A stretch of DNA of 57,723 nucleotides, taken from contig CAYUJB010000003.1 in the NCBI GenBank assembly GCA_964444955.1, forward strand, positions 1 to 57,723, given 5' to 3'. The notes below the pieces were generated by a model. It worked only from the letters and a program-made list of their open reading frames with translations, was not told the origin of the DNA and did no database searches. A program made the translations under genes and the position numbers. This DNA comes from an uncultured Candidatus Saccharibacteria bacterium (GTDB lineage Bacteria > Patescibacteriota > Minisyncoccia > 2-02-FULL-40-12 > GWA2-44-9). This document shows, piece after piece, positions 29,850-46,663 of the stretch; the first letter of the stretch is position 1, and each line of letters opens with the position of its first letter.

Positions 29850-31430
29850 ATGGCATCTCCCACGACCATCCGACTCACCGGCGCTGCACTGACCACACAG
29901 GATGTGCTGGCAGTGGTCACCAATCCCCGGCTTCGCGTGCTCGTGGCACCAACAGCTCTCGCGCGGATGCGCAAATCAAAGAAACTTCTGGATGCATCGC
30001 TGACATCACGCATTATCTATGGCGTGAACACCGGCTTTGGACCCATGGCGTCGCATATTATTGGTCGCGATGATTTGATCCAGCTTCAGCTCAATCTCGT
30101 ACGGAGCCACGCCTCGGGCATCGGCGCCCCCATCGATCCCAAGCATGTACTGGCAGCGATGATCATCCGCCTCAACACCATTGCAAAAGGATTTTCGGGA
30201 GCATCTGAAAGCGTTGCTCAGCACCTTGAACGTTTCATCAATGCTCGCATCACGCCAGTGATTCCCGAACATGGCGCCGTGGGCACGAGCGGCGACCTGG
30301 TACAGTTGGCGCACATCGCGCTCGCGCTCATCGGCGAAGGCGAAGTGCACTATCGTGGCACGCGCATGCCAACCGCAGTGGCACTCAAAAAAGAAAAGAT
30401 ATCGCCACTCGTGCTGGGCCCCAAGGAAGGGCTCGCGCTCATTAACGGCACGGCCGGCATGACGGGTATCGCGGCGCTCCTGTGCGAGCACGCCGCGCGT
30501 ATCGTGGCTCTTACGCTCCGCACCGGTGCGTGGTCGCTGGATGTGGTGGGCGGATTCGATGACAGCATCAGCGAGCGCATCCATGCAGTGCGGCCCCACA
30601 CGGGACAACGCATTGCCGCTGCCGCCCTTCGCTCGTTGGTGGCCAAAAGCAAGCGCATGAAAAGTCGTGAGGCATTTAACAAAAAACATGCAATCTCCGA
30701 CGAAGTGCATAAAATCGCCGAAGACGTGCAAGAGATGTACTCGCTGCGCTGCATCCCGCAGATTGTGGGGCCGGTACTGGATGCGTTTTGGCGTGTCCAC
30801 AGCGATGTGACCACCGAAATGAATTCGGCGACCGACAATCCCATTGTTGATTGGGAGCGCGGTGTCTTTTTGCACGGTGGCAACTTTCACGGAGAGTACG
30901 TTGCGGCGGCAGTTGACTATCTCAAAACGGGCATCATCAAGCTCACCATGCTCAGCGAACGACGCATCAATTATTTTATGAATCCTGCCATCAATCACCG
31001 ACTCCCGCCGTTCGTGAATCTCCACACGCCCGGACTCACGCTCGCGCTCCAGGGAATGCAGTTTGTGGCCACCTCCACCGCCGCGCACAGCCAATCATTG
31101 GCATTTCCCCATCACATCCATTCAATTCCGACCAACGGTGATAACCAAGACGTCGTGAGTATGGGATTTGATGCTGCGCTCATCGCCACCAAAGCTATCG
31201 AGAATGCGTATGCGGTGCTGGCGATCGAACTACTCACGCTCGCGCAAGCAACCGATGCGCTCAAATGCTCTGGTGAGTTATCGCCCGCCAACCAGCAGCT
31301 GTATCGCGCGATTCGAAAACAGACAGCGGCCGTACGGGAGGATCGCTCACTGGCACCGGATCTTGCTCGCATCGTGGAATTTATACAGACGTCGGATGCT
31401 CTGCCGTTGGAATCACTACGGAAACCATGA
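29850..31430 (+). CDS. MIO-dependent aromatic amino acid ammonia-lyase (TAL/HAL/PAL family, probably TAL-like)
   Basis: YGVNTGFG, GTSGDL (MIO tripeptide TSG), EGLALINGT, YSLRC, DNP, GGNFHG and NQDVVSMG. Confidence 0.95.
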   Translation: MASPTTIRLTGAALTTQDVLAVVTNPRLRVLVAPTALARMRKSKKLLDASLTSRIIYGVNTGFGPMASHIIGRDDLIQLQLNLVRSHASGIGAPIDPKHVLAAMIIRLNTIAKGFSGASESVAQHLERFINARITPVIPEHGAVGTSGDLVQLAHIALALIGEGEVHYRGTRMPTAVALKKEKISPLVLGPKEGLALINGTAGMTGIAALLCEHAARIVALTLRTGAWSLDVVGGFDDSISERIHAVRPHTGQRIAAAALRSLVAKSKRMKSREAFNKKHAISDEVHKIAEDVQEMYSLRCIPQIVGPVLDAFWRVHSDVTTEMNSATDNPIVDWERGVFLHGGNFHGEYVAAAVDYLKTGIIKLTMLSERRINYFMNPAINHRLPPFVNLHTPGLTLALQGMQFVATSTAAHSQSLAFPHHIHSIPTNGDNQDVVSMGFDAALIATKAIENAYAVLAIELLTLAQATDALKCSGELSPANQQLYRAIRKQTAAVREDRSLAPDLARIVEFIQTSDALPLESLRKP

Positions 31431-32911
31431 CACCCCGAGAGCTGCTTTCGTTTTTCAATTCTCACAAGCGACGCAATTGGGTCAATCACTTCTTCTCGTT
31501 TGATGTCGCAGGGTTCGAACGATTACTCATCGAGCGCGATGAGTCGTTTTGGAATCGCCTGGGCGCACAACGCGCGCTCGCGCTCTTTCACGCAGCGGCA
31601 CAGCGTGTGCCCGCCTACAAGGATTTCCTTCGAACCAACCATGTCCGTCATTCAACGGTGCGCACCGCCGACGATTTTGCGCACGTGCCTCCGACCACGA
31701 AAAAGAACTACATTGATCGCTACCCCCTCGAGGCGCGCTGTTGGGACGGGCAACTCAGCGCCAACGGTCTTGTCGCCATGAGCTCCGGCACGAGTGGGGA
31801 GCCAAAATTTTGGCCCCGGGGTGGGTTTGCAGAATTCGAGGCAGCGATCATCCACGAGCTAGCATACCGATCTCTCTTTCATATCCAAAAAAAGAAAACG
31901 CTGCTGATTATCGGATTCCCCATGGGAGTGTATGTATCGGGCATCGCTACACTTTTGCCGAGCTGGATGGTGACGCAGAGAGATTACACGCTCACGCTGG
32001 TCGCTACGGGCAACAATAAAGCCGACATGCTGCGCGTCGCGCAGCATCTGCGCGAGTCATTCGAGCAAGTCGTTTTGGTGGGGCATCCTTTTTTCATCAA
32101 AGACGTCATCGAGACCGGCGCCTCCCAAGGCATCGACTGGAGTGCAGTGGACGTGTCGATGCTCTACTGCAGCGAGGGATTCAACGAGGCGTGGCGCGCC
32201 CACGTTTCAACCGTCGCCAAAATTCCGCCAAAACGCCTCCGTGCATTTAACACCTATGGCTCATCAGAGACACTCCTCATTGGTCACGAGACGCCACTAA
32301 GCGTTGCCGTTCGCCGCACACTCTCAGAGGTGCTGACCCCCAATGTGTTTCAATACAATCCTTTCTTGCGCTACATCGACGCTACCGGTGATGCACTCAA
32401 CTTCACTATGGATAACGGCGTGCCACTCATCAAATATGATCTCGCTGATGGTGGGCACGTTCTGTCGTTTGCCGAGGCAACTCAACACCTCCCCGCTGCC
32501 GCACGACGTACCGCCTGGAAGCTCCCCTTCGTGACCCTCGATGGTCGCCGCGATAACACCATCATATTCTACGCCGCCAACATCTACCCCGAACACGTGC
32601 ACGCTGCACTCAACGACAAAAAGTTTCTACGTAAAATCACGGGGAAATTTGCTATGCGTAAAGACTATCGTCCCAATAAAGATCAATTTCTTGAGATCAA
32701 TGTAGAACTACGTCCCGACGAAAAACCGACCGCCACACTTTCTGCTGGCATTGCTAAGCACGTCGTAGCGCGCCTGCTGGATATCAACATGGAATACAAA
32801 TTTCTCTGGTCAAATCTCGACAAAGACATCCGCCCGCGTATCGTATTGCGCCCCTACCAGCATGAGGTATACTTCCGACCGGGATTAAAACCGAGGTACA
32901 TTATCAAATGA
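31427..32911 (+). CDS. Phenylacetate-CoA ligase (PaaK)-family adenylate-forming enzyme
   Basis: SSGTSGEPK, TYGSSE, KYDLAD and GRRD...NIYP. ATGA overlap with the lyase. Confidence 0.88.
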   Translation: MTPRELLSFFNSHKRRNWVNHFFSFDVAGFERLLIERDESFWNRLGAQRALALFHAAAQRVPAYKDFLRTNHVRHSTVRTADDFAHVPPTTKKNYIDRYPLEARCWDGQLSANGLVAMSSGTSGEPKFWPRGGFAEFEAAIIHELAYRSLFHIQKKKTLLIIGFPMGVYVSGIATLLPSWMVTQRDYTLTLVATGNNKADMLRVAQHLRESFEQVVLVGHPFFIKDVIETGASQGIDWSAVDVSMLYCSEGFNEAWRAHVSTVAKIPPKRLRAFNTYGSSETLLIGHETPLSVAVRRTLSEVLTPNVFQYNPFLRYIDATGDALNFTMDNGVPLIKYDLADGGHVLSFAEATQHLPAAARRTAWKLPFVTLDGRRDNTIIFYAANIYPEHVHAALNDKKFLRKITGKFAMRKDYRPNKDQFLEINVELRPDEKPTATLSAGIAKHVVARLLDINMEYKFLWSNLDKDIRPRIVLRPYQHEVYFRPGLKPRYIIK

Positions 32912-34053
32912 ACGCTATCGACCGACCCACACTCTATACCACGACGCAGATCTCGCACCGTCGAGCAGTGACAAAGCTTCGGAAGGATACGAGCATCCGC
33001 GTGATCGACACGTACGAGAGCCAACTCTCGGAGCTCTTTGTTATTGAGCACCCTGAGGTTATCCGTCTTCCCAAGCATGAACTAGCGGCAACGCTGACCG
33101 ACTCGGTGAAGAAGACAGCGCGACGAGCTCCTCTCGAGCGTCAGGGCACCTGGGCGTGGCTTCCCTGGCAGCGCGCGCTCGTGCACATCTTGCCCGAAAA
33201 AGAATTTGTACGCGTTCGCACGTCACGAAATGGCAATCTCATCACCCGCGAGGAACAAGAAAAGTTCTATCGGTGCACCGTGGGCGTTGCGGGATTGTCA
33301 GTAGGAGGCAGTATCGCGCTCACCCTCGTACTCCAGGGTGGTGCACGGAATATCCGCATCGCAGATTTCGATTCGCTCGAGCTCTCGAACACTAATCGCA
33401 TTCTTTCGGGAGTGCATGAGCTGGCCACTCCGAAAACGACTATCATCGCGCGGCGCATCTGGGAAATGAACCCATACGCGCAGATCGATATTTTCCCCGA
33501 TGGGCTCACCGAAGACAATATCCCGCGCTTCATGCGAGGACTCGATGTCGTCGTCGATGAAATGGACCAGATGGCAATCAAACAGCTCATTCGCGAGCAG
33601 GCACGCGCGCTCAAGGTTGCACTTGTCTCAACGGCGGATAACGGCGATACGAGTGTTGTAGATGTTGAGCGACACGATCTCAAGCGAACACCGTACTTCT
33701 TGGGACGACTTGGCAAAACCAGTGTCGAGCACTTCTGTGCTATGGATAAGCTACAAATCATCCGCGAGATTACCCGTCTCATGGAACCCAAGAACGTACC
33801 GCCCCGCATGCAGGCGTCGCTGCCCGAAATCGGTCACACGCTCGTATCGGTCCCACAACTGGGTGGCACAGCACTGATGGGCGCGGCGGCAACTGCGTAC
33901 TGCATCCATCGGATCGCGGCCGGGTTGCCCCTGCCGTCGGGTCGATCCATCGTTTCACTCGACGAGAAACTCGAACCAGGATTTATGAAGTCGAAAGCGG
34001 TGACGAAGCGAGACAGGAACACACGAGCATTCGCAAAACTCTTCGGCTTGTAA
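32908..34053 (+). CDS. ThiF/E1-like adenylyltransferase, Rv1355c (MoeY)-type
   Basis: W.W.PW.R.LVHILP..EF..VRT.RN..LIT.EEQ, GVAGLSVG and DFDSLELSNTNR. No CxxC zinc motifs. Confidence 0.85.
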   Translation: MNAIDRPTLYTTTQISHRRAVTKLRKDTSIRVIDTYESQLSELFVIEHPEVIRLPKHELAATLTDSVKKTARRAPLERQGTWAWLPWQRALVHILPEKEFVRVRTSRNGNLITREEQEKFYRCTVGVAGLSVGGSIALTLVLQGGARNIRIADFDSLELSNTNRILSGVHELATPKTTIIARRIWEMNPYAQIDIFPDGLTEDNIPRFMRGLDVVVDEMDQMAIKQLIREQARALKVALVSTADNGDTSVVDVERHDLKRTPYFLGRLGKTSVEHFCAMDKLQIIREITRLMEPKNVPPRMQASLPEIGHTLVSVPQLGGTALMGAAATAYCIHRIAAGLPLPSGRSIVSLDEKLEPGFMKSKAVTKRDRNTRAFAKLFGL

Positions 34054-34122
34054 GCGACGCGCCCTCGAACTCATCGAGGACGTTTTTCTTGAACTGAATA
34101 TAGAGGTATACTAGAAATACCT

Positions 34123-35154
34123 ATGCGCACTGTCGTTGAACGCATCTTAGAGGCGGGGGTGATGGCCCCATCGGGTGATAATTGCCAACCGTGGCGATTT
34201 GAAGTTACCGACGATACAATCGACGTATTTCTGATACCCACACGCGACCAATCACTTTACAGTTGGGGCAATCGTGCCTCCTACGTTGCACATGGCGCGC
34301 TCATCGAAAACATAGCAATAGCATCGGGGCCTCTGGGCATGGCGTGCGATATCCGCGAGCTTCCTGATCCGGACAATCTCCTCCACACGGCACACATCAC
34401 GCTCACCCCAAGCACACCGAAAGAGCATCCACTTACTGTTGCGATAGCGAAGAGGTGCTCGAATCGAAAACCATACAAAGCGCTCGGACTCACCGATGCA
34501 CAAAGGACGCAGCTTACCCAAGCCGGAGGAAATAAGGTGCACCTCATTGAGGATAGCGCCCGGCGCAAAGCGCTCGCCTACGCACTCGCCTCGAACGAAA
34601 AGGTGCTTTTTGAAAATCGCGCCATGCACGCATTTTTCTTTGACCACATGCTTTGGTCATCTATCACATCAGCTCCTCATGCTCTGGGATTCCCCGTGGG
34701 AGCCCTTGAGCTTCCCCCGCCGGTGCGTTTCGTTTGGCCAGCACTACGTCACTGGCCCCTGATGAAGGCGCTCACCTCGCTCGGATTTGCAAATGCGATT
34801 GTGTTTGGCAATACACCCATCTACGCATCAGGAGCAGCGCTTGCCAGCTTTACGCTGCCCGACCGCTCGGAGCGTGCCTATCTGGACAGCGGTCGTACGC
34901 TCCAGCGTCTCTGGCTCACCGCGACACGCCTCGGACTCAGCGCGCAGATTCTCACAGGTATACCTCTTCTCATGAATGCGGTACTCGAGAACAACACAGC
35001 ACTCTCATCAGATCACTGCGCGCTTATTCGCGCACGCTACCAGGCCATCGAATCCATACTGAACACTGACGAGCCCATCGCCTTCTTTTTGCGTATCGGC
35101 ACCAGCGCACCCCCAAGCGCACGCACACCGCGAACCAAACCGTTGATCGTATGA
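34123..35154 (+). CDS. Nitroreductase-fold (Acg-like) flavoprotein
   Basis: APSGDNCQPWRF, RCSNRKPY and GRTLQRLWLTATRLGLS. Confidence 0.85.
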   Translation: MRTVVERILEAGVMAPSGDNCQPWRFEVTDDTIDVFLIPTRDQSLYSWGNRASYVAHGALIENIAIASGPLGMACDIRELPDPDNLLHTAHITLTPSTPKEHPLTVAIAKRCSNRKPYKALGLTDAQRTQLTQAGGNKVHLIEDSARRKALAYALASNEKVLFENRAMHAFFFDHMLWSSITSAPHALGFPVGALELPPPVRFVWPALRHWPLMKALTSLGFANAIVFGNTPIYASGAALASFTLPDRSERAYLDSGRTLQRLWLTATRLGLSAQILTGIPLLMNAVLENNTALSSDHCALIRARYQAIESILNTDEPIAFFLRIGTSAPPSARTPRTKPLIV

Positions 35155-36812
35155 ACCCCTCCACTCCATCACTCGGTCTCATAGGCACATCACTCCTCGA
35201 CCGCCTGGGCAACCTCGATCTCGTCGCCATTCTCATTACCGTAGCGGCAGTTCTGACGCTCGGTTTTGTTGTGTATTTCAATAATCCGAAAAGCTCAACC
35301 AATCGCGCGTTCTTGATGTTTTCGCTGATGACCGTTGCGTACGGCTCAGCTAACTTTGCAAGCTACCAAATCACCGATCCGTGGCAGGTGCTGTGGCTGC
35401 TGCGCATCACCATGTTCTCTGCGGTGTGGCACGCTGTCTCGTTCTTCTATCTCTTCTTCGTATTCCCGCAACAGCGCGTATCGTTGCCCCGGTGGTTTGT
35501 GGGCGGCGCTCTTCCCATCGCAGCAGCTACCAGTATGCTCACGCTCACGCCCTACGTCTTTGAATCGATACAAACAGTTTCCGAGGTTGGTTCAGTCACT
35601 AATCCTATTCGAGGCCCGGCAATTCCTCTCTTTGGTGCCGTCGCGGGCATCTTTGTTATCGCAGGGCTCTGGGAGCTCCTCAAGAAAACGTTCTCGGGCG
35701 CGGACTTACAACGCAAACAGGCGCGCGTCATCCTCTTTGGCGCCGCAACAACATTTCTCCTGATTCTTATCTGTAACGTCCTGCTTCCTCTCGCATTCGA
35801 TATCCTCCGCTTCATCCCCCTCGTCCCCATTTTCTTCTTACCGTTCATCCTTCTCACGGCACATGCCATTCGCAAATATCGATTCTTGGAGACCAAGGTG
35901 CTGGCCACGGAAATCTTTGCCCTCGTACTTGTCATCCTGAATATGATTGAGCTGGTTATCGCACGAGACCTCGCCACACTCATTTTGCGCATCGGTGTAT
36001 TTTCCGCAGTGCTCGCGTTTAGCATCATGCTTATTCAATCCGTTATCCGCGAGGTGAAACAACGCGAGGAATTGCGTACACTCACCGATGATCTCCAGAA
36101 AGCAAACGGTAAACTCACGGAGCTTGATCAGCTCAAATCTCAGTTCTTGTCGTTTGCGTCACATCAACTCCGCTCGCCACTCACGGCTATCAAGTGGCAG
36201 GCACAGCTCTTGCTTGATGGTTCCGTGGGCACGCTACCCAATAAGGCGCTGGAGACCGCACGCGGCATCGAAGAATCATCTGACCGCATGATTGAACTGG
36301 TCAACGAATTCCTCAACCTACGCAAACTCGAAGAGGGAAAAATGGAATACACACTTGAACCCACAGACATCGCCGAGCTTGCCTCAAGCGTAGTCACCGC
36401 CCTCAAACAACTGGCCGTGCACAAGGGGCTTAACCTCACGTATGTGAACACAGCAACAAAAACGCTTTGTTCGGTGGATCGACAAAAAATGATGCAGGTG
36501 GTGCAGAATCTCGTCGACAACGCGGTAAAATACACCGATCATGGCGAAGTGCGCGTTGCGGTGGAGGATGCATCGACTGGGCGACTTCGTATTCTCGTGT
36601 CTGACACCGGTCATGGCATCGATCCCGCGCTGATCGATAAGCTTTTTGAACAGTTTGTCCGTGATAAAAAAGATGCGATGCAAATAGAGGGTACAGGTCT
36701 TGGTCTCTACATTGCCAAGCAGATGGTGGATGCACATCACGGCGCCATTCGAGTGACCTCGCCCGGCAAAGGCAAGGGCAGCACGTTTGTTGTGGAATTG
36801 CCCACGCTCTAG
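35151..36812 (+). CDS. Sensor histidine kinase with N-terminal 7TM (HisKA_7TM-like) domain
   Basis: Multi-TM N-terminus (NPKSSTNRAF); H box ASHQLRSPL, N box NLVDNAVKY, DTGHGI and GTGLGL. Confidence 0.95.
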   Translation: MNPSTPSLGLIGTSLLDRLGNLDLVAILITVAAVLTLGFVVYFNNPKSSTNRAFLMFSLMTVAYGSANFASYQITDPWQVLWLLRITMFSAVWHAVSFFYLFFVFPQQRVSLPRWFVGGALPIAAATSMLTLTPYVFESIQTVSEVGSVTNPIRGPAIPLFGAVAGIFVIAGLWELLKKTFSGADLQRKQARVILFGAATTFLLILICNVLLPLAFDILRFIPLVPIFFLPFILLTAHAIRKYRFLETKVLATEIFALVLVILNMIELVIARDLATLILRIGVFSAVLAFSIMLIQSVIREVKQREELRTLTDDLQKANGKLTELDQLKSQFLSFASHQLRSPLTAIKWQAQLLLDGSVGTLPNKALETARGIEESSDRMIELVNEFLNLRKLEEGKMEYTLEPTDIAELASSVVTALKQLAVHKGLNLTYVNTATKTLCSVDRQKMMQVVQNLVDNAVKYTDHGEVRVAVEDASTGRLRILVSDTGHGIDPALIDKLFEQFVRDKKDAMQIEGTGLGLYIAKQMVDAHHGAIRVTSPGKGKGSTFVVELPTL

Positions 36813-36850
36813 CTAGAATCTCTTGGTTTCCCTGTGGTATACTTAGGGGT

Positions 36851-37246
36851 ATGCCGGGTGAAAAACCTCTCATTCTTCTCACGGACGATGATGCGAGTAT
36901 TCGCAACATTTTGCGCATCAAATTAGAAGCGGCGCAGTTCGAGGTTGTAGAAGCTAAAAACGGCCAAGAAGCCATTGATTTTTGCAGCAAGCAACGCCCC
37001 GACCTCATTGTCATGGACGTCAGTATGCCTGTTATGACAGGCACGGAAGCGGTAACCCACATCAAAGAAGATCCGAAGCTTCGTGATATCAAGGTGGTGT
37101 TTCTGAGTAGCTTTGGTGAAGAGAGTGAACTCAACGCCTGGATCGACCAAAAATACGCCAAAGAGTTGGGCGCGGTTGACTACATGAAGAAGGGTGAGGA
37201 TATCGGCAAAATCATAGAGAAGATAACTACACTACTGCATGGGTAG
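36851..37246 (+). CDS. Single-domain response regulator (receiver only)
   Basis: TDDD acidic pocket, MDVSMP phospho-Asp, FLSS and YMKK; no output domain. Confidence 0.93.
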   Translation: MPGEKPLILLTDDDASIRNILRIKLEAAQFEVVEAKNGQEAIDFCSKQRPDLIVMDVSMPVMTGTEAVTHIKEDPKLRDIKVVFLSSFGEESELNAWIDQKYAKELGAVDYMKKGEDIGKIIEKITTLLHG

Positions 37247-38975
37247 TCAACCTGAAAAATCAGTTCTCATCATCGAGGATAATTTTTTCATGGCGCAGTT
37301 GTTGAGCGAAAAGATTGGCCACCAGGGATTTTCGGCGGTGCACGCGCAAGATGGCACTACGGGTTTAAAAAAGGCCGACGAGAAAGCTCCGTCGCTCATC
37401 CTGGTAGACATTCCGCTCTCCGGTGAACTCGACGGTATCGCAACACTCACAGCCATTCGTGGCCGCAAGAGTCTCTCTGCATCCCCCGTGCTCATCCTAC
37501 TCAACACCAGTGATGCAAAGGAGATCGAGCAGCTGACAAAATTAGGCTTCACCAACTACCTCGTCAAGGCGGACGCCAATGCCGACGCCATCGTATTGAA
37601 AATTGTTGAGATGGTAACGGGTATCGCGCAGAAAACCACCAAGATCGTCCCGCCGGCTGAAGCGGAAATCGCGGCAACCAGTCGCGTTCCAAAAAAGGCC
37701 GCGGCGCAAAAAGAATCATCTGATGACGGAGCGGCATTTGCGGCGCGTGCAGTCGCGCTCAAGACGGAAGTGGAGGCAATGCTCAAACTACCCGAAACAG
37801 AAATCTCCATCATCAAGCTCGTCGACGACATGATGATCTATGCATTTCTGGCACGGGCTTCTGACGTCCACCTGGAGCCATTCGAAGAAACGCTTGTCGC
37901 GCGCATGCGCATCGACGGCATCCTCAGCGATGAATTTACGTTTGTAAAAAATCTCCACTCGGGCATCATCTCGCGTATCAAAGTGTTAGGTGGCATGCGC
38001 ACCGATGAGCACCAAGCCGCACAAGATGGGCGATTCCAGATGAGTATCCCTGAACTCAACAAGCAGTTCGATGTCCGTGTGAGCATCATCCCTACCTACT
38101 ACGGTGAAAATGGCGTTCTCCGCTTGCTGGCCGAACAAACATCGATTAGCTCACTCGACAATCTCGCATTCACCGATTTTGATCGAGCGCGTATTCGTAA
38201 AGCGGTCAAAACACCCTATGGCATGATTCTCGCAACCGGGCCCACCGGATCTGGGAAAACCACCACGCTCTATACTATTTTGCGCGAGCTCAATACCCGC
38301 GAGGTCTCGGTCATCACCATCGAAGACCCTATCGAGTACTCCCTCGAAGGCGTCGACCAGATTCAGGTTAATGCGCGCACGGGCCTCACGTTTGCCACCG
38401 GATTGCGATCCATTTTACGCCAAGACCCCAACATCATTATGGTAGGAGAAATCCGTGACGAGGAAACCGCCTCCATCGCCATCAATGCTGCACTCACGGG
38501 GCACAAGCTCCTGAGTACCATTCACACCAACGATGCCGCCACCACACTGCCCCGCCTCCTTGATATGGGCATCGAGCCGTTCTTGGTGGCGTCCACGGTG
38601 AACGTTGCCATCGGACAACGTCTCGTGCGCATGATCTGCAATTCCTGCAAAGTACCGCGTCGCATCACGGAAGGTGAATTCAACGCGCTCAAAGAAAATA
38701 TCCCGGAAGCAATTTTGGGAGACCACCATGATTTTTTCCAGGGCAAAGGGTGCGCGATATGCGGCAACACCGGCTATCGAAGCCGCATGGGGATTTATGA
38801 GATACTGGAGATGAACGATTTCATTCGCGAGGCGCTCATGCGGCGCGCCGATGCCGGAGAAATAAAAAAGATCGCTATCAAAAACGGTATGACCACGCTC
38901 CTTGAAGATGGGTTTAAGAAGGCCGTCGAGGGTAGAACGACTATCGAGGAGCTCTTACGCGTTATTCACGAATAA
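37239..38975 (+). CDS. pilB: Type IV pilus/T2SS assembly ATPase (PilB/GspE) with N-terminal receiver domain
   Basis: Receiver (IIEDN...LVDIPL...YLVK) followed by ASDVHLEP, GPTGSGKTTT, MVGEIRD, STIHTND and CxxC...CxxC. Confidence 0.93.
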   Translation: MGSQPEKSVLIIEDNFFMAQLLSEKIGHQGFSAVHAQDGTTGLKKADEKAPSLILVDIPLSGELDGIATLTAIRGRKSLSASPVLILLNTSDAKEIEQLTKLGFTNYLVKADANADAIVLKIVEMVTGIAQKTTKIVPPAEAEIAATSRVPKKAAAQKESSDDGAAFAARAVALKTEVEAMLKLPETEISIIKLVDDMMIYAFLARASDVHLEPFEETLVARMRIDGILSDEFTFVKNLHSGIISRIKVLGGMRTDEHQAAQDGRFQMSIPELNKQFDVRVSIIPTYYGENGVLRLLAEQTSISSLDNLAFTDFDRARIRKAVKTPYGMILATGPTGSGKTTTLYTILRELNTREVSVITIEDPIEYSLEGVDQIQVNARTGLTFATGLRSILRQDPNIIMVGEIRDEETASIAINAALTGHKLLSTIHTNDAATTLPRLLDMGIEPFLVASTVNVAIGQRLVRMICNSCKVPRRITEGEFNALKENIPEAILGDHHDFFQGKGCAICGNTGYRSRMGIYEILEMNDFIREALMRRADAGEIKKIAIKNGMTTLLEDGFKKAVEGRTTIEELLRVIHE

Positions 38976-38991
38976 CTACAAACGGGGGGAT

Positions 38992-40068
38992 ATGAAATGG
39001 TTCGATAAACTTAACGCATACGCATTTCGGCTCACGCTGAAAGATAAGATGCTGTTTGCGCGCCACATGGAGATGATGACGCGCTCGGGTATGCAGGTGC
39101 TCAATGCACTGGAGATCCTTAAAAAACAGACGACGTCCAAGCCGTTCATCAACATGATTGACCAGCTCATCGATGATGTCCGCAATGGCCATTACCTTTC
39201 GGTTGGCATGGAGCGCTACCGCCACGTCTTCGGGGACTTCTTCATCAATCTGATTCGCGTTGGCGAATCATCGGGAACGCTTTCAGAAAACTTTGCATAC
39301 CTTGCCGCTGAACTTGGTAAAAAATCGGAGCTGCAAAAGAAAATCCGCGGCGCTATGGCGTATCCCTTCGTCATTCTTTTTGCGACCTTCGGCATATCAG
39401 GGATTCTTTCATTCTTTATTTTCCCCAAAATCCTCCCCGTCCTCAGAAGCCTCAATAGTGCATTACCACTTTCGACCCGCATCTTCATTGCCATCTCTGA
39501 ATTCATGATTTCGTACGGTATCTATGTATTTCTGGCGATTGTACTTGCAGTGATAGGATTCTTTCTTGCTATCCGCGTTCGCTCCATACGCAAAACGTGG
39601 CACAAGATCATTTTGGCAACGCCGGTCGTCGGTCGCCTTTCGACTGATGTGAATATCATCGGCATCTCACGCACGCTCAATCTTCTGCTTCGCGGAGGCG
39701 TCAAAATTGTTCAAGCACTTGAAATCACGTCTGATACCCTTCCCAATCTGGTCTACCAAGACGAACTGCGCATCATCTCAACCGCCGTTCAGCGTGGCGA
39801 ACCCATGAGCAAATCAATGATCGCCAACGAGCGACTCTTCCCACCTACCTTTAGCCAGATGGCAGCGGTAGGAGAGAACACCGGTAAACTCGATGAGACA
39901 CTGGTGTTCATGGCCGATTTCTATGAAGGAGAGCTCGACAACGCGACAAAAACCATGAGCAACATCCTCGAGCCCGCAATGCTCCTCACCATGGGAGCCA
40001 TTGTTATGTTTGTTGCGATCTCCATCATTACCCCCATCTATTCGGTTACTCAGAACCTTGGCCGATGA
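38992..40068 (+). CDS. pilC: Type IV pilus platform protein PilC/GspF (start revised)
   Basis: VGESSGTL, AMAYP, VGENTGKLD and LEP..L. Confidence 0.93.
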   Translation: MKWFDKLNAYAFRLTLKDKMLFARHMEMMTRSGMQVLNALEILKKQTTSKPFINMIDQLIDDVRNGHYLSVGMERYRHVFGDFFINLIRVGESSGTLSENFAYLAAELGKKSELQKKIRGAMAYPFVILFATFGISGILSFFIFPKILPVLRSLNSALPLSTRIFIAISEFMISYGIYVFLAIVLAVIGFFLAIRVRSIRKTWHKIILATPVVGRLSTDVNIIGISRTLNLLLRGGVKIVQALEITSDTLPNLVYQDELRIISTAVQRGEPMSKSMIANERLFPPTFSQMAAVGENTGKLDETLVFMADFYEGELDNATKTMSNILEPAMLLTMGAIVMFVAISIITPIYSVTQNLGR

Positions 40069-41828
40069 CGTCTTCTTTCCAGCGCGTTCGTGGATTTACA
40101 CTCTTGGAAACCCTCATCGCGATGGGCATATTTTCTATTGTGGCAACCAGTATCTTTTTCGCTTACTCCAACATTCTCGACATCATTATTGCCGTGCAAT
40201 CCAATGACGCTGCGCTGACCGTGTTACGCAATGAATTCGAAATGATTCGAAACATTCCTTACCCCGACGTCGGCATCAGCGGGGGTGCGCCACCAGGATC
40301 GCTGATTGCCACAAAAACGGTAGCGCTCGGATCAGCAGAGTACACCGTCACCACGACAGTTCGAGATGTTGATGATGTATTTGACGGAAGCATCAGCAGC
40401 ACCCCACGCGACGCCATTCCAGGAGACTACAAACTGGTCGATGTCTACGTCACTTGCGACACTTGCAAGCGCTTTGTGCCTGCTCACATGGTGACCACCA
40501 TCGCCCCCATCGGTCTGGAGCGTGCCACGCGAAATGGCTCACTCTTTCTCAATGTTATCGACGCGTCCGGCAACCCAGTAAGTGGAGCTACTCTTGCCAT
40601 TACTAATTCCCTCGTGAATCCCTCAATCTCGATTACCGACTCAACCAACGTCAGTGGCAGTCTCGATTTTGTCGATATTGCAACCAGCAGCGCTGGCTAT
40701 CATATCGTCGTAACAAAAAATGGCTACTCTTCAGACCGCACGTATGCTGTCGGCGACTCGGCAAATCCCAACCCACTCCAACCCGACGCATCAGTTCTCG
40801 AACAAAAAACAACCAAGCTGAGCTTTATCATCGACCAACTCGGCTCGTTTACCTTCAAAACACTGGATAAGTATTGCGCGGCCGTCCCCCAGATTCCCTA
40901 CCAACAGGTGGGATCCAAGCTCATCGGCTACGATCCCGACATCTATAAATACGATGCGCTCCTGACTACGAATAGCTCAGGGATATTTAGCAATACGTCT
41001 CAAGAGTGGGACACCTATGATCTGTATAACCGCTCAACAACCTACGACATCGCGGGCACCGTGCCCTTCATGCCGGTTATCGTAGATCCCGCCAGCAGCT
41101 CGACGCACACTTGGATTATGGAGCCAAAAAATGCCCCCGCGCTACTCGTCTCTATATCCGATGAGGACGAGAGCCCGCTCTCAGGGGCATCAGTACGCCT
41201 CACGGGCCCTAATGTAGACATCACTCGCGTCACCGGGAGAGCATTTATCGATCAGACCGACTGGTCGACATCTGGTGCGTATACCTCCATAACGACGTAT
41301 ATCAACACTACGACGCCCGGCATCATCACCCTGTCTCAAATCAACGGGAAATATGCATCGTCGAGCGATCAAGTACTCACCTCAAAAACGTTCGACCTAG
41401 GCACTACAACGAGCACGCTCTCGACCTTCACTTGGAATCCCACGTCGCAACCGACGAATACAACCTTGAAATTTCAAATTGCCGCCAATAACGACAATGC
41501 GACATGGAACTACGTGGGGCCTGATGGAAAAAGTACCTCATACTTTACTGCCAGTGGGACCACTACGCCCTCGAGCTTGAGCGGAAAAAGATACCTGCGA
41601 TATCAAGCAGTTCTCCGCACCTCCAACCAAACAGTAACACCGAGCCTCCACGATATCGCCATCGAGTTTACTTCAGCGTGCACCGCTCCAGGACAAACGT
41701 ACATTGGCGGACTTCCCACGGGAACCTACACAATAACCACATCAAAGTCAGGATACGAGGACAGTATCGACGCGGTCGACGTAACCCAAGACTGGCAAGA
41801 ATTTCAAGACACACTTATCGCTCAATGA
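40065..41828 (+). CDS. Large pilin-like protein with Ig/carboxypeptidase-regulatory-like repeats
   Basis: Prepilin site RG-FTLLE plus a hydrophobic helix; two repeats of the ..D..G.P.SGA.. type. Confidence 0.82.
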   Translation: MTSSFQRVRGFTLLETLIAMGIFSIVATSIFFAYSNILDIIIAVQSNDAALTVLRNEFEMIRNIPYPDVGISGGAPPGSLIATKTVALGSAEYTVTTTVRDVDDVFDGSISSTPRDAIPGDYKLVDVYVTCDTCKRFVPAHMVTTIAPIGLERATRNGSLFLNVIDASGNPVSGATLAITNSLVNPSISITDSTNVSGSLDFVDIATSSAGYHIVVTKNGYSSDRTYAVGDSANPNPLQPDASVLEQKTTKLSFIIDQLGSFTFKTLDKYCAAVPQIPYQQVGSKLIGYDPDIYKYDALLTTNSSGIFSNTSQEWDTYDLYNRSTTYDIAGTVPFMPVIVDPASSSTHTWIMEPKNAPALLVSISDEDESPLSGASVRLTGPNVDITRVTGRAFIDQTDWSTSGAYTSITTYINTTTPGIITLSQINGKYASSSDQVLTSKTFDLGTTTSTLSTFTWNPTSQPTNTTLKFQIAANNDNATWNYVGPDGKSTSYFTASGTTTPSSLSGKRYLRYQAVLRTSNQTVTPSLHDIAIEFTSACTAPGQTYIGGLPTGTYTITTSKSGYEDSIDAVDVTQDWQEFQDTLIAQ

Positions 41829-42424
41829 AAACCACTGGCTTTACCCTTGTCGAACTTCTCATCTCCATGGCTATCGCCTCCATGATACTGGGTCTTGTGA
41901 CAAAGTTTACGCTCGACATCTCTGGCGCCAGCACTACCTATGGTCAGAGCGTACTCACACACCAAACGGTGGCGCTCGCTGCTAAACGACTCACTGATCA
42001 AATTTCTTCAGCTGCCCAGTCTGCTCAGGGCAGCTATCCGATTCTGAGCGCGTCCCCCACATCTCTTACGCTGTACACCGACATCGATGCCGACAGTGTC
42101 GTTGATCAAGTCCGTTATTTTCTGAGCGGCACCACCCTTCGCATGGGCGTTATCGCTCCGAGCGGAAATCCGCTTGTCTATAACCCATCGTCCGAAAACA
42201 TTAGCGATCTCGTCGATGATATCGTATCGCAACCTGGCGTAGATCTATTCTCCTACTACGACACCACCTACACCGGTAGCCAATCGTCACTCGCGTACCC
42301 CATCGATGTCTCAAAAATCGGTCTCGTTCGCATTACTCTCACTACCGACCGCGATACTACCACCGAACCAGGCCCCCTCACCACATCGCTCGTAATTGAT
42401 ATTCGTAACCTTCGCGCCCAATGA
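41825..42424 (+). CDS. Minor pilin (PilW-like, start revised)
   Basis: MKTTG-FTLVELLISMAI; ATGA overlap with the upstream gene. Confidence 0.85.
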   Translation: MKTTGFTLVELLISMAIASMILGLVTKFTLDISGASTTYGQSVLTHQTVALAAKRLTDQISSAAQSAQGSYPILSASPTSLTLYTDIDADSVVDQVRYFLSGTTLRMGVIAPSGNPLVYNPSSENISDLVDDIVSQPGVDLFSYYDTTYTGSQSSLAYPIDVSKIGLVRITLTTDRDTTTEPGPLTTSLVIDIRNLRAQ

Positions 42425-43869
42425 ACACCCCCTATCATCAACGTGGTCAGCTAACCCTGTATGTGCTCGTGTTCAGCGCCGTCGCCATCACAACGCTTGC
42501 TGGCCTCATCCTCTGGGTCGACTCCAATCTCAAAATTGGCTACCGCTCTATTGATCAAGCTCAGGCGCAGGCAATAGCCGAGGCAGGAATCGAATACGCA
42601 CGGTGGCACTTTGCGCATAGCCCCAACGACTATCAAGACGGCACAGGACACGCGGGACCCTATGTGCATGACTACAAGAATAAAGATGGCGTATCCATCG
42701 GAACATTTTCGCTCGACATCGTCCCTCCAGCCAACGGGTCCACCATCATCACCATCACATCGACTGGCTGGGTCACAGCTGCTCCCACGCTGACCAAAAA
42801 GATTCGCGTGCAACTTGCGCCCGAATCCGTCATCAAGTACGCAGTGCTCGCCAATAGCAATATCAAATTTGAATCAGGCACCGAAATCTTTGGCCCCGTG
42901 CATTCCAACGGTGGCATTCACTTTGATGGCATAGCCCACAACCTCGTCACCAGTGCGCGCTCCACGTACAACGATCCCGATCACTCAGGAGCAAACGAAT
43001 ATGCCGTGCACACACACGCCACAACGACCGATCCTCTGCCGACAGCTCAGCTTCCCGTTCGCAACGATATCTTCATGGGAGGGCGATTATTCCCGGTTCC
43101 ACCGGTGGATTTTGCGGGCATCACCAAAGGCATGGCCCAAATAAAAAGTGCGGCGCAATCGGGAGGAAAATATTTTGGAAAGTCAGGTGCAAAAGGGTAT
43201 CACATCGTGCTCAAAACAAATGGTACATATACCGTGACGAAGGTAAAGAAAACTCTGAAAATACCCAAAGGGTGCAAAAATACGCAACACCAAAAAGGAT
43301 GGGCGACGTGGAGTATCGATTCTGGCAACAGCAGCGAGCAGACCGTTGGTACCTACAATTACCCGGCAAACGGCATTATCTTCTTTGAAGATAATGTGTG
43401 GGTCGATGGTCAGATCAAAAACAATATCCTTACCATCGCGGCCGCGAAGCTTCCTGCAAGTAAAAAGAGTTTTAAGAATATCATCATCAATCACAGCGTG
43501 GCATACACCTACTACGATGGTAGGGATGTGCTGGGGCTGGTCTCACAAGGTGACGTACATGTGGGCATGGCGAGCGATGCGACGCTACGCGTGGACGCTG
43601 CCGTGGTTGCTCAAAATGGTCGCGTGGGACGATACTACTATCGACCCGCTGTTGGATCTAAGACGTATTGCGCCCCCTATGACACGCGCACGAGTATCAC
43701 GTTTAACGGCATGATCGCTACGAACACCAGTTACGGATTTGCGTATACGGATGGGTCTGGCTACCAGAGCCGCACCATTCTCTTTGATGCGCACCTGCAA
43801 TACAACCCACCCCCTACATTCCCGCTGATCTCAACGGACTATCACCAAATCCTGTGGTCACAACTCTAG
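42421..43869 (+). CDS. PilX-like minor pilin with large C-terminal domain
   Basis: QRG-QLTLYVLVF N-terminus and QAQAIAEAGIEYA PilX motif. Confidence 0.8.
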   Translation: MNTPYHQRGQLTLYVLVFSAVAITTLAGLILWVDSNLKIGYRSIDQAQAQAIAEAGIEYARWHFAHSPNDYQDGTGHAGPYVHDYKNKDGVSIGTFSLDIVPPANGSTIITITSTGWVTAAPTLTKKIRVQLAPESVIKYAVLANSNIKFESGTEIFGPVHSNGGIHFDGIAHNLVTSARSTYNDPDHSGANEYAVHTHATTTDPLPTAQLPVRNDIFMGGRLFPVPPVDFAGITKGMAQIKSAAQSGGKYFGKSGAKGYHIVLKTNGTYTVTKVKKTLKIPKGCKNTQHQKGWATWSIDSGNSSEQTVGTYNYPANGIIFFEDNVWVDGQIKNNILTIAAAKLPASKKSFKNIIINHSVAYTYYDGRDVLGLVSQGDVHVGMASDATLRVDAAVVAQNGRVGRYYYRPAVGSKTYCAPYDTRTSITFNGMIATNTSYGFAYTDGSGYQSRTILFDAHLQYNPPPTFPLISTDYHQILWSQL

Positions 43870-44003
43870 TATGGTGCGGTGTGTGGACAATTCGTTTGGC
43901 AATCCCTGGTATACTTAATGAAATCAAGGTCGATAGCTGGGACGCTCCATGCATGGCGCCTCAGTGCACAATGTATTGAAATTTCAACAAACATAAATTA
44001 CCT

Positions 44004-44471
44004 ATGCCCGTAAAAAAAGAAAAAGGACAGAAGGGGTTCACCCTTATCGAAATCCTGGTAGTTATCGGTATCATCGCGATCTTGGCGGCAGTCGTCATCG
44101 TTGCCTTGAATCCGGCTCGTCAGTTCGCGCAAGCTCGCAACACGCAGCGCTGGAGTAACGTCAACACGATTCTCAACGCAGTCGGCCAACGCATGGCAGA
44201 CAACCGTGGAATCTGGAGCTCCACCTGTGGTGCATCTACGGTTGCGCTTCCAGGTGCAGCAGGCAACTGGATTGGTACCGGTGGAACACTCACCGACCTC
44301 GAGGCGTGCATTGTTCCGACCTATGTCTCATCGATGGTGGTTGATCCTTCCACTGATGCAGTCGCATCAGCAGGATACACTGGCTACCGCATTAGCCGAG
44401 CAACGACAGGCCGCATCACCGTCAGCGCACCGCTGGGTGAGCTCGACGAAGTCATCTCGGTTACTCGCTAG
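44004..44471 (+). CDS. Type IV pilin (probable major pilin)
   Basis: KG-FTLIEILVVIGIIAILAAVVIVALNP. Own extended -10 (TG-G-TATACT, 43907-43915) and a downstream terminator. Confidence 0.92.
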   Translation: MPVKKEKGQKGFTLIEILVVIGIIAILAAVVIVALNPARQFAQARNTQRWSNVNTILNAVGQRMADNRGIWSSTCGASTVALPGAAGNWIGTGGTLTDLEACIVPTYVSSMVVDPSTDAVASAGYTGYRISRATTGRITVSAPLGELDEVISVTR

Positions 44472-44544: not shown

Positions 44545-46146
44545 ATGAAGTATTCATTCTTCATTATTCTCGCATCTCTGTGCGCTGCGACAACTGCGCA
44601 GGCGATACTGTTTTCAGAATTCAACCCTGACTACGCACAGGCCATACAGCTTGAAGCTGGAGATACCGTTGATGAGTTTCTTATTCCGCGCAACGACTAC
44701 TTTGGCGGCATCGATTTTTGGGTGAGCAACAACGGAACAGCAGTCACCGCAGTATTCTCACTCAACGATTTTTCTGGAACCACCATCGAGTCGCGTGCCG
44801 TCAGCATTCCCGCTCTTGCCGATTCTGATACCGGCACCCGCTACCACATCGATTTGGCAACACAGATTGCGACACCAGCTGCAACGACCTACAAGATCAC
44901 CCTCCGCCCCAACGGCTATCTGCGTGTATACGCAGCCGATGCGGTGCCACTTTTGACTCACAACGCGACGGTGCCAGCCACATCTACGAATGGAATCGCT
45001 GCTATAAATAACGAGCTACAACTTATTAGTCTCACGCACGCCTTGTACGAAGATCAAGAATCGACGCCACCTCGCATTCGGAGCCATGAAGTTCAGCAGC
45101 CCGCGCCGGCGACTGCCGTAATTGTTTTTGAGACCAATGAGCCCGTGGATCGCCGACTTACCCTTTCCAGTACTCTTGCCGCTGACTGGAGCGGTACATA
45201 TTCATTTTGTGAAACGGGCATCAATACGTGTAGCATCTCGTTAAGCGTAGTCCCCGGCACGACATATACGTACACTCTCAATGTCCGCGATGCGTGGGGA
45301 AATCTCGCCGAAACAACTGGAACCTTCACGGCGATCGGTGGTGACCAGTCCCCAACCACAACCGCCACCCCTACTACGTCCACAATGCCAACGGCATCGC
45401 CCAGCGCAACGCCCACGGCGACCCCACCTCCCGACATCACAGGTCCCACAATTATTAACGCTCGTGTCGTCTCGTTGACGCCACACTCTGCGACGTTCGC
45501 GTGGACGACCAATGAAGCGGCCAACAGCTCAGTCGTTGTTCAGCTACTACCGTACTTCATCAATGCCGGTGCAAATAACGACAGCACATTTGAGCTCGAA
45601 CACCTCGTGTATGTAGACGGACTCACGTCCGACACCCCTTTGCGCGCCACCATCACCTCCTACGACGGGTCGGGTAACTCATCAAAGACAACTATCAATT
45701 TTCTCACTCCCGTAGAGACACCGACTCCCGCAACAACTACTCCGCCCAGCTCCTCCCCAACTCCTGTAGCAACGCCGCACGTACAAGGCGATGGCGACAC
45801 CCAAACACTGCTCCTTCCGCCATCATCAGACGGGTCTGCTGCTTCCAGTTTTCGCGTTGATATCTTTGACTCCTCAAACAGACTCATTAAAACAATCCTC
45901 GTGCCCGCGGGACAAAAAGAAATTGCTCTCAAGGAGCTTGCCCGCAGCGGCAATCGTATTATCGTGTACGAACAAACCGATGGCGTATTCCAAAAAGTAG
46001 CAGCGTCATCGAATCCTCAGAAATCGGCGCCTCGTACACCGCTCATTCTAGGGACACTCTTACTCCTCCTCGGCGGAGCCGTGTATTTCCTGTGGCAACA
46101 GCGTCGCCGCCGCATGACTACCTTACACCCGGACGGATCACAATAA
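44545..46146 (+). CDS. Surface protein: signal peptide, FN3-like domains, Thr/Pro linkers, C-terminal TM plus RRRR (start revised)
   Basis: MKYSFFIILASLCAATTAQA signal peptide; FAWTTNEAANS...DGSGN FN3-like pattern. Confidence 0.75.
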   Translation: MKYSFFIILASLCAATTAQAILFSEFNPDYAQAIQLEAGDTVDEFLIPRNDYFGGIDFWVSNNGTAVTAVFSLNDFSGTTIESRAVSIPALADSDTGTRYHIDLATQIATPAATTYKITLRPNGYLRVYAADAVPLLTHNATVPATSTNGIAAINNELQLISLTHALYEDQESTPPRIRSHEVQQPAPATAVIVFETNEPVDRRLTLSSTLAADWSGTYSFCETGINTCSISLSVVPGTTYTYTLNVRDAWGNLAETTGTFTAIGGDQSPTTTATPTTSTMPTASPSATPTATPPPDITGPTIINARVVSLTPHSATFAWTTNEAANSSVVVQLLPYFINAGANNDSTFELEHLVYVDGLTSDTPLRATITSYDGSGNSSKTTINFLTPVETPTPATTTPPSSSPTPVATPHVQGDGDTQTLLLPPSSDGSAASSFRVDIFDSSNRLIKTILVPAGQKEIALKELARSGNRIIVYEQTDGVFQKVAASSNPQKSAPRTPLILGTLLLLLGGAVYFLWQQRRRRMTTLHPDGSQ

Positions 46147-46663
46147 ATCTATTTTTGAATGCGCGGAGAAATCCCGAGAGCTGCAGGGCGCGTAATCCTT
46201 CGTGTGCAGTCCGCTCTTCAGGGTCACAGAACGAAACAACACCATCGGTAATTCCCGTCACGACAACGATGTGCCCCCCACCACGCTGTGGATCAAGGCC
46301 GGCGTAGACACTGGCGAGCACAGGACCACGATCGAGCTCCGTAGCAAGGAGTGCCCACGCTTCTTCGACGGTCTTGGGTGCTGCACTTTTTGGTCCGAAA
46401 TCAGCATTATAGCCTGTGTATCCAAAATCTTGCGCTAGCCGTACGAGACCTGCATGCGTCCAACCCACACCCTCGAGATATGCACCAAGCGCTGTACCAC
46501 GCTCCAGGAGTGTATCCAGAGCGGGGAGTTGATTGTAAGCGTCATGAGCATGCTCATACGCCATTACCATGTGCAACGACGCGATGCCACACCCACGCGC
46601 GCGCCAGTCGTGGTGCCCTATATCGGTGTACTGCGAAGAGAATGGAACGTCGTAGGATGACAT
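46118..46663 (-). CDS. Peptidase C39-like protein
   Basis: VPFSSQ...GCGIASL, GHIVVV and CDP catalytic triad pattern. Confidence 0.85.
   Translation of the reverse strand: MSSYDVPFSSQYTDIGHHDWRARGCGIASLHMVMAYEHAHDAYNQLPALDTLLERGTALGAYLEGVGWTHAGLVRLAQDFGYTGYNADFGPKSAAPKTVEEAWALLATELDRGPVLASVYAGLDPQRGGGHIVVVTGITDGVVSFCDPEERTAHEGLRALQLSGFLRAFKNRFIVIRPGVR

Follow-up and report, generated by a model that had tools for sequence, protein, structure and literature searches.

A receiver domain in the regulatory slot of a type IV pilus assembly ATPase, encoded beside the only histidine kinase of a Saccharibacteria genome

Control of type IV pilus assembly ATPases by cyclic di-GMP (c-di-GMP) through an N-terminal MshEN domain is known, and receiver proteins that act on pilus motors in trans have also been described: PATAN-REC regulators bind PilB1 in Synechocystis (10.1101/2021.06.11.447907; PMC11181946), and DrdR controls PilB/PilT in Xanthomonas (PMC13507683). 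Here, we describe a locus of an uncultured Candidatus Saccharibacteria bacterium in which a response-regulator receiver domain (REC) is built into PilB itself. The locus lies on a stretch of 57,723 nucleotides (contig CAYUJB010000003.1; called the window below), which is contig 3 of a genome of 696 kb in 22 contigs with an estimated completeness of 96%. On the + strand, the genes follow one another in the order tyrosine ammonia-lyase (TAL)-like lyase of the 4-methylideneimidazole-5-one (MIO) type, PaaK-like ligase, ThiF-like enzyme, nitroreductase-fold oxidoreductase, histidine kinase with a seven-transmembrane (7TM) sensor region, stand-alone (free) receiver, receiver-PilB fusion (REC::PilB), PilC, and then pilin-type genes (Table 1). 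From position 29850 to ~46146, every gene is on this strand, with overlaps of 4 to 8 nucleotides (nt) or short gaps between neighbors.

Compared with PilB, MshE, and GspE proteins that carry MshEN, the fusion has the same T2SSE domain, Walker A motif, and tetracysteine, is likewise followed by pilC, and carries a regulatory domain in the same N-terminal slot; here, however, the N1 domain is a receiver, and the presumed input is His-Asp phosphotransfer rather than a cyclic dinucleotide. The trans-acting proteins PilG and PilH (Pseudomonas Pil-Chp), PixG, PixE, and TaxP1 (Synechocystis), and DrdR also place a phospho-receiver on the pilus motor, post-translationally and without DNA binding, and a free receiver stands beside pilB in the window as well. 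In contrast to those systems, one receiver is here covalently joined to PilB, the kinase is a membrane HisKA 7TM protein and not a CheA array, and the fused receiver has no Thr/Ser switch. Operons of other orders of the class (histidine kinase, free REC, MshEN-PilB, PilC) share the gene order and an orthologous PilB-PilC pair with the window, but MshEN is kept there, whereas the window's order has a second receiver. Receivers acting in trans and control through MshEN and c-di-GMP being already known, what is new is a receiver in cis at the MshEN slot that is served by a classical membrane kinase. No published REC-PilB or REC-GspE fusion was found in the literature library searched, where the hits that were read dealt with MshEN and c-di-GMP only; a query on two-component pilus control in the Candidate Phyla Radiation (CPR) gave no hits, and no such fusion appeared among the listed titles on response-regulator censuses. 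REC::PilB proteins themselves are already in public databases.

The receiver domain of the fusion spans residues 8 to 127 (~37260 to 37619), is followed by a disordered linker (~128 to 165), and scores 57 bits against PF00072 (cutoff, 30.2 bits). In an alignment anchored on CheY, it has the acidic pair E13-D14, the phosphoryl acceptor D57, L88 at the position of Thr87, Y107 at that of Tyr106, and K110 at that of Lys109, with Ala as the residue after K110, where Pro is usual. The AlphaFold2 (AF2) model has a (beta-alpha)5 fold of five strand-helix units over residues 8 to 127 (per-residue confidence [pLDDT], 82 to 90), in which D57 ends beta3 and L88 ends beta4; residues 132 to 163 are modeled as a disordered linker. 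A protein search with residues 1 to 190 returned 23 clusters at 90% identity with the Response_reg plus T2SSE architecture. Together with 10 sequences from the genomes of relatives, these gave 33 REC::PilB sequences, none of which departs from D57 or K110; at the first acidic position, Glu is present in every sequence that extends that far. Pairwise identity is 21 to 79% in REC, compared to 63 to 98% in the ATPase. Public gene calls begin the window's protein and those of two relatives (P0001, P0005, and P0016) at Met18 (37239-37292 region), cutting off beta1 and the acidic pair. The stretch upstream of Met18, VLIIEDNFF, is conserved in 21 of the 23 homologues, with VLIIEDN near-invariant; since these residues are conserved as protein, the long start is correct, and the Met18 start of automated annotation can make the receiver look defective.

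The remainder of the fusion is a T2SSE ATPase (PF00437, 390 bits) with the Walker A motif GPTGSGKT and a tetracysteine (C467/C470/C505/C508) whose four Cys are invariant in the family; it matches NCBIfam GspE at 490 bits and PilB at 456 bits, both under the equivalog cutoffs. No match to the MshEN/T2SSE_N (N1) domain was obtained in REC::PilB, where REC fills residues 1 to 127 instead. The receiver occupies the slot normally held by this regulatory domain. Five T2SSE ATPases are encoded in the genome, of which four are of the PilB type and one is PilT-like. Downstream of REC::PilB come PilC and prepilin-type substrates, namely, three proteins with N_methyl (prepilin methylation) motifs, together with two conserved proteins of unknown function. 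Immediately upstream, the free receiver has fully canonical residues (DD, D, S, Y, and K in the CheY-anchored alignment), and its gene shares its last 8 nt with the beginning of pilB (ATGGGTAG at 37239-37246), an overlap found identically in 5 related loci. An origin of the fused REC by recent duplication of the free one was considered and set aside, the two being only ~28 to 30% identical, no closer than to free RECs of other orders.

The kinase, whose H, N, G1, F, and G2 boxes are readable in the translation, combines HisKA and HATPase_c domains and is encoded beside the receivers, as in classical two-component systems. In a whole-genome scan, it was the sole histidine kinase, the other HATPase_c match being GyrB, and only two REC domains were found, those of the free receiver and of REC::PilB. 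The genome holds exactly one two-component system, and this system is without DNA-binding output. CheA, the mark of a chemosensory system of the Pil-Chp or Frz type, is absent, as the GHKL ATPase domains of the genome are those of the HisKA kinase and GyrB only. A preliminary description, made from the letters of the window alone, had pointed out that the only receivers near the kinase are the free one, overlapping the pilB start, and the PilB-fused one, which keeps the acidic pocket, Asp, and Lys and has Leu at the switch position; each of these readings agrees with the residues and overlap given above. Its further remark that neither receiver has a DNA-binding domain, with signaling that would dispense with a transcription factor, holds genome-wide, with two REC domains, one kinase, and no transcriptional output for the signaling system anywhere. 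The same description spoke of a phosphorelay wired to the type IV pilus motor, and this part has to be divided. One receiver does lie inside an extension-type PilB that heads a pilC-pilin operon, but that PilB is one of four PilB-type ATPases, and the term phosphorelay does not apply. No Hpt domain was matched genome-wide (PF01627, E ≤ 0.1; a Spo0B-like protein was not searched for), and the kinase carries no receiver domain in Pfam, i.e., is not a hybrid. Because the genome lacks an Hpt domain and a hybrid kinase, the arrangement is a branched two-component system and not a phosphorelay in the strict sense.

To describe the distribution of the fusion, we scanned 105 species-representative genomes of the order with an N-terminal profile. 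The fusion was present in ~28 of them, in three families, including 11 of the 12 genomes of the window's genus, and full-length REC plus ATPase was confirmed in 19 of the ~28. With a full-length profile run against 401 genomes of the class, full-length REC::PilB matches were confined to the window's order; elsewhere, the best PilBs align only from residue ~156 to 190 on. The matches listed in a phylum-wide scan with the N-terminal profile were mostly stand-alone receivers, a scan that does not exclude distant fusions, and a search of genome contigs with a single peptide pattern gave 5 true relatives. In a maximum likelihood (ML) tree, the fusions form one clade relative to paralogues (support, 100), and all deep fusion branches carry the free REC and mostly the kinase too. 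Of the ~28 fusion genomes, 19 encode a HisKA kinase right beside the fusion or no more than 6 kb away (including G091, where the kinase is cut by the contig end), and two more (G063 and G093) encode it elsewhere in the genome.

Eight loci from other orders of the class were fetched for comparison. Four of them (G478, G737, G770, and G524 of the L043-L047 set) show a histidine kinase, a free REC of 123 to 128 amino acids (aa), a PilB of ~565 aa, and PilC. In another, L047 (G558), a 140-aa free receiver stands directly before pilB, but the stretch that was fetched contained neither a kinase match nor pilC. The N-termini of these PilBs are not REC and read like MshEN; the PilB-PilC pair is orthologous to that of the window, with an ATPase identity of 52 to 55%. 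Since a free REC stands beside MshEN-PilB in other orders, a receiver next to pilB predates the fusion. A kinase and free receiver beside pilB are therefore a wider theme of the class, and the fusion is derived, MshEN having given way to a second receiver.

We consider it probable that the 7TM kinase feeds both the free receiver and the receiver built into PilB and that one pilus system is thereby gated post-translationally. In this scheme, the kinase would sense a membrane or extracellular cue and autophosphorylate, and the phosphoryl group would pass to two receivers, the canonical free one and the one that replaces MshEN (N1) of one PilB. The state of the fused receiver, transmitted via a flexible linker of 35 to 40 residues, would alter hexamer assembly, ATPase activity, or engagement of PilC, while the free receiver could either compete for phosphate as a sink or dock as a partner. 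In this way, the system would gate extension of the dedicated pilus whose genes follow REC::PilB, and its output would be a motor and not a promoter. The domain architecture, the uniqueness of this kinase and these receivers in the genome, the conserved phospho-acceptor pocket, the synteny with the kinase, and the derived position of the fusion are shown, and they speak for the scheme, as do the confident REC fold, the precedents that act in trans, the older placement of a receiver next to pilB, and the linkage of the enzyme cassette. Phosphotransfer to either receiver, an effect on ATPase activity or piliation, and the direction of control are what we infer; that the signal is self-made, or that it reports density or the host, is conjecture at this stage.

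Several observations weigh against this scheme. In f1, the family-level group of the window, the Thr/Ser switch is lost, the position of CheY T87 being Phe or Leu in all members but G063 (Ser); it is Ser in G089, G091, and G093 of f3. In three f3 members, the second acidic residue is Ser or Lys, and the residue after Lys110 is Ala, Ser, Gly, Thr, or Val instead of Pro. With Leu or Phe in place of Thr/Ser, classical Thr-Tyr switch coupling is impossible. The T87I substitution of CheY offers an analogy, one that favors the scheme: according to the account of Zhu et al. (1997) given in PMC3774744, the mutant protein is phosphorylatable and nonsignaling and autodephosphorylates ~5-fold more slowly. 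By this analogy, Leu or Phe at the switch predicts a noncanonical coupling and perhaps a long-lived phospho-state. The AF2 model is silent on contacts between REC and the motor, as its ATPase part is poor (mean pLDDT, 54) and only REC and N2 are confident. The reach of the scheme is also limited, because the genome encodes three PilB-type ATPases besides REC::PilB, so any control would cover one pilus system and not all pili.

Further objections come from genomes that have lost the kinase. Seven fusion genomes (G055, G056, G060, G061, G014, G048, and G089) are without any GHKL-type kinase, their sole HATPase_c protein being GyrB, and six of the seven are also without another receiver (G089 keeps a free REC). 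According to the ML tree, this state arose independently at least 4 times. The preliminary description had taken a fusion distributed independently of the kinase as evidence against its reading, and the distribution is partly of that kind: the kinase is near the fusion in 19 of the ~28 genomes and missing from these seven. The kinase-less REC::PilB proteins keep E-D, D57, and K110 intact, and only the position of Tyr106 drifts (Leu, His, or Phe). Their REC (six compared) is not more decayed, with an offset of -0.05 in REC identity at equal ATPase identity, a crude comparison of nonindependent pairs; relaxed constraint on REC after kinase loss was accordingly set aside, this small offset being indicative only. 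No acetate kinase (PF00871) was found in the nine genomes searched (G000, G055, G056, G060, G061, G014, G048, G064, and G041), and acetyl phosphate, considered as the donor in kinase-less genomes, is therefore weakened as a candidate and no obvious replacement for the kinase (Pta was not searched for). Since the fusion is kept intact in kinase-less genomes, the fused REC must have some kinase-independent function. In G055, G056, G060, G061, and G063, RmuC abuts REC::PilB, and the whole upstream cassette is missing. G063 (L035), which belongs to the same genus as the window, has its kinase and two free receivers on another contig (G063:C1:112607-114147).

These genomes are better accounted for by a second explanation, which is possible but clearly less probable than gating through both receivers. 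The fused REC could be a phosphorylation-independent adaptor, close to a pseudo-receiver, in the N1/MshEN slot; the phosphorylated free REC would dock on it or on PilB, as PilG, PilH, or PixG do, and in kinase-less lineages the fused REC would stay as a structural part of the motor. Phe or Leu at the switch throughout f1 (Ser in G063 only) and the missing Lys-Pro suit such a domain, as does the persistence of the fusion, with no extra decay in the pairs compared, in genomes without a kinase or acetate kinase. The free REC is fully canonical and, to judge by its place beside MshEN-PilB in other orders, is the older partner of PilB. The explanation does less well with the phosphorylation pocket: although pairs of these REC domains are otherwise only 21 to 79% identical, D57, K110, and the first acidic residue never vary, kinase-less lineages included, whereas true pseudo-receivers usually lose the Asp. 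A changed switch residue also need not abolish phosphorylation, given that CheY T87I, as PMC3774744 reports it, can still be phosphorylated.

A different division of labor, in which one receiver is a phosphate sink that sets signal duration, seems unlikely. Either the free REC would drain the kinase, or a long-lived fused REC would be the sink while the free REC targets PilT or another PilB. Chemotaxis systems that have several CheY proteins provide known examples of sink receivers, and the genome has one kinase, two receivers, no Hpt or phosphatase partner, and, as possible targets, the PilT-like ATPase and three other PilB-type ATPases. Sink and output are indistinguishable at the sequence level, however, and a free REC that is translationally coupled to this pilB and lost together with the kinase fits a role within the module. 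Finally, it is very improbable that the neighborhood is coincidental, with the kinase and free receiver regulating something unrelated and the REC on PilB an inert relic: some genomes have the fusion without the kinase, but the genome has no receiver or histidine kinase besides those of this block, three families keep the block, 8-nt gene overlap included, the order of histidine kinase, REC, PilB, and PilC recurs in other orders, and REC is under clear constraint.

Table 1. Features of the window and other T2SSE ATPases of the genome
Feature	Coordinates	Strand	Evidence and remarks
RmuC	27824-28828	-	Upstream boundary gene, conserved in relatives
MIO-type aromatic amino-acid ammonia-lyase, closest to flexirubin tyrosine ammonia-lyase FlxA	29850-31430	+	First gene of cassette; PF00221, 527 bits; NCBIfam FlxA_rubin_TAL, 572 bits (cutoff, 700); 4-nt overlap with next gene
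Distant PaaK-like adenylate-forming ligase, 494 aa	31427-32911	+	No Pfam match; weak NCBIfam PaaK (E, 5e-12), FlxY; PDB 4r1l phenylacetate-CoA ligase (E, 0.0015); kept in 7/7 cassette genomes
ThiF-like adenylating enzyme	32908-34053	+	PF00899; NCBIfam Rv1355c family, 325 bits, model positions 12-341 of 722 (N-terminal cyclase half)
Nitroreductase-fold, Acg-type flavin oxidoreductase	34123-35154	+	PF00881; NCBIfam Rv1355c positions 375-712, 144 bits (C-terminal oxidase half); Acg family; PDB 2ymv; 4-nt ATGA overlap with kinase gene
Sensor histidine kinase, 7TM N-terminal sensor region	35151-36812	+	PF16927 (HisKA_7TM), PF00512 (HisKA), PF02518 (HATPase_c)
Stand-alone receiver, 131 aa	36851-37246	+	PF00072 (Response_reg), 79 bits
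REC::PilB fusion, 578 aa	37239-38975	+	Pfam Response_reg residues 9-111, T2SSE 189-574; N2 and T2SSE ATPase after linker
PilC/GspF platform protein	38992-40068	+	Two T2SSF domains; NCBIfam GspF and PilC; syntenic in every relative
Large pilin-like protein, 587 aa	40065-41828	+	N-terminal methylation motif (PF07963), CarboxypepD_reg-like domains (PF13620); syntenic in relatives
Minor pilin-like protein, 198 aa	41828-42424	+	PF07963; syntenic
Conserved operon member, 482 aa, N-terminal hydrophobic segment	42421-43869	+	No Pfam or NCBIfam match; 474-493-aa gene at same position in relatives
Pilin, 155 aa, candidate major pilin	44004-44471	+	PF07963; syntenic 146-155-aa gene in relatives
Exported membrane-anchored protein, ~533 aa, Ig-like region	44545-46146	+	Last conserved gene of block; start inferred from signal-peptide-like MKYSFFIIL; weak Arylsulfotran_N Ig-like match; 536-561-aa gene at same place in relatives
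Other T2SSE ATPases			594-aa MshEN-PilB followed by second PilC; 562-aa PilB with weak MshEN match, beside ruvB; 414-aa PilB without N-domain; 353-aa PilT-like

The four enzyme genes upstream of the kinase resemble known oxazolone systems in part. The likeness to OxzAB of Pseudoalteromonas rubra, TyzACB, and TrzAS (Rv1356c/Rv1355c) of Mycobacterium tuberculosis lies in the adjacent ThiF-like cyclase and nitroreductase-fold flavin oxidase. Rv1355c is TrzS, an oxazolone synthetase of M. tuberculosis (PMC12856293), and OxzB and TyzB/TyzC are the counterparts for tyrosine-derived oxazolones (PMC12856293, PMC10404671, 10.1101/2020.06.11.147165). In contrast to these systems, the two halves of the synthetase are separate genes here, and each half alone scores under the full-length cutoff of 476 bits; cyclase and flavin oxidase are both present. 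No GNAT-type N-acyltransferase, as an oxazolone pathway would have, was found in the cassette, which instead contains the TAL-like lyase and the PaaK-like ligase. The lyase has Thr-Ser-Gly (GAVGTSGDL) where the MIO-forming triad is usually Ala-Ser-Gly.

The lyase family occurs in 10 of the 105 genomes of the order, and in 7 of these, the kinase, free REC, and REC::PilB are immediately preceded by all four enzyme genes of the cassette (G000, G054, G064, and G041 in f1; G072 and G087 in f3; G104 in f4). Three gene orders were observed (lyase-ligase-ThiF-oxidase, lyase-ThiF-ligase-oxidase, and ThiF-ligase-lyase-oxidase), with protein identities of 29 to 56%, and the oxidase gene is directly before the kinase gene in all three. 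Because the four genes have been shuffled and yet remain together beside the kinase across three families, their arrangement argues for a selected functional link between cassette and kinase. Co-occurrence of the receiver-PilB fusion with the biosynthetic genes, proposed as a check in the preliminary description, is thus seen in these 7 genomes. The cassette is absent from most fusion genomes; in a close relative, the site is occupied by genes for an epimerase and a methyltransferase. Two relatives (L012 6468-9573; L016 4413-7538) have in this place a SET-domain gene, a 7TM kinase, and a second, soluble HisKA kinase of 307 to 308 aa.

The cassette probably makes a small molecule functionally tied to the kinase, for which, from the enzyme content, an aryl-acyl oxazolone is a reasonable candidate. 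The linkage alone does not make this product the ligand of the kinase; it might just as well act as a cofactor, modify the cell surface, or be the substrate for a redox sensor that the oxidase forms. The authors who described oxazolones pointed out their resemblance to signaling molecules and the neighborhood of signaling genes (PMC12856293). Extending the gating scheme, the cassette might make a diffusible aryl-acyl oxazolone, and the 7TM kinase might sense this molecule or a host-modified form of it and pass the signal straight to the receiver on the motor. We regard such a transcription-free autoinducer circuit as doubtful.

A scan for promoters and terminators across the operon gave counts inside the shuffled expectation. 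One site alone stands out, at 34063-34079 (+), where a terminator-like hairpin with a T-run behind it lies in the 69-nt gap between the ThiF-like and oxidase genes; the oxidase, kinase, and pilus genes may form a transcription unit apart from the lyase, ligase, and ThiF genes. Between RmuC and the lyase gene, a 288-aa protein is encoded at 28869-29735 (-) that has no Pfam or NCBIfam match and no tblastn match in any of 24 loci fetched from relatives. At the other end, a gene for a Peptidase_C39_2/C70-like cysteine protease (46118-46663, -) is convergent to the end of the pilus block and occupies the same place in all relatives examined (L010, L012, L013, L015, L016, and L017). This protease may be functionally part of the pilus module.

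Attachment to host cells is the way of life of bacteria of the CPR (Patescibacteria). Those Saccharibacteria that have been cultivated move and bind their hosts by means of type IV pili (10.1101/2024.11.25.624915). In the organism described here, the entire two-component repertoire of a 0.7-Mb genome is devoted to one pilus motor. Natural losses among its relatives form a series (cassette, kinase, and receivers; kinase and receivers; fusion alone) that provides built-in comparators for the role of the receiver. The oxazolone-type cassette linked to this system points to a candidate physiological role for that class of natural products (PMC12856293). If the autoinducer circuit were true, cells would put out attachment pili in response to their density or to the presence of a host, without a transcription factor, and the same motor would be constitutively active in lineages that lost the cassette and kinase.

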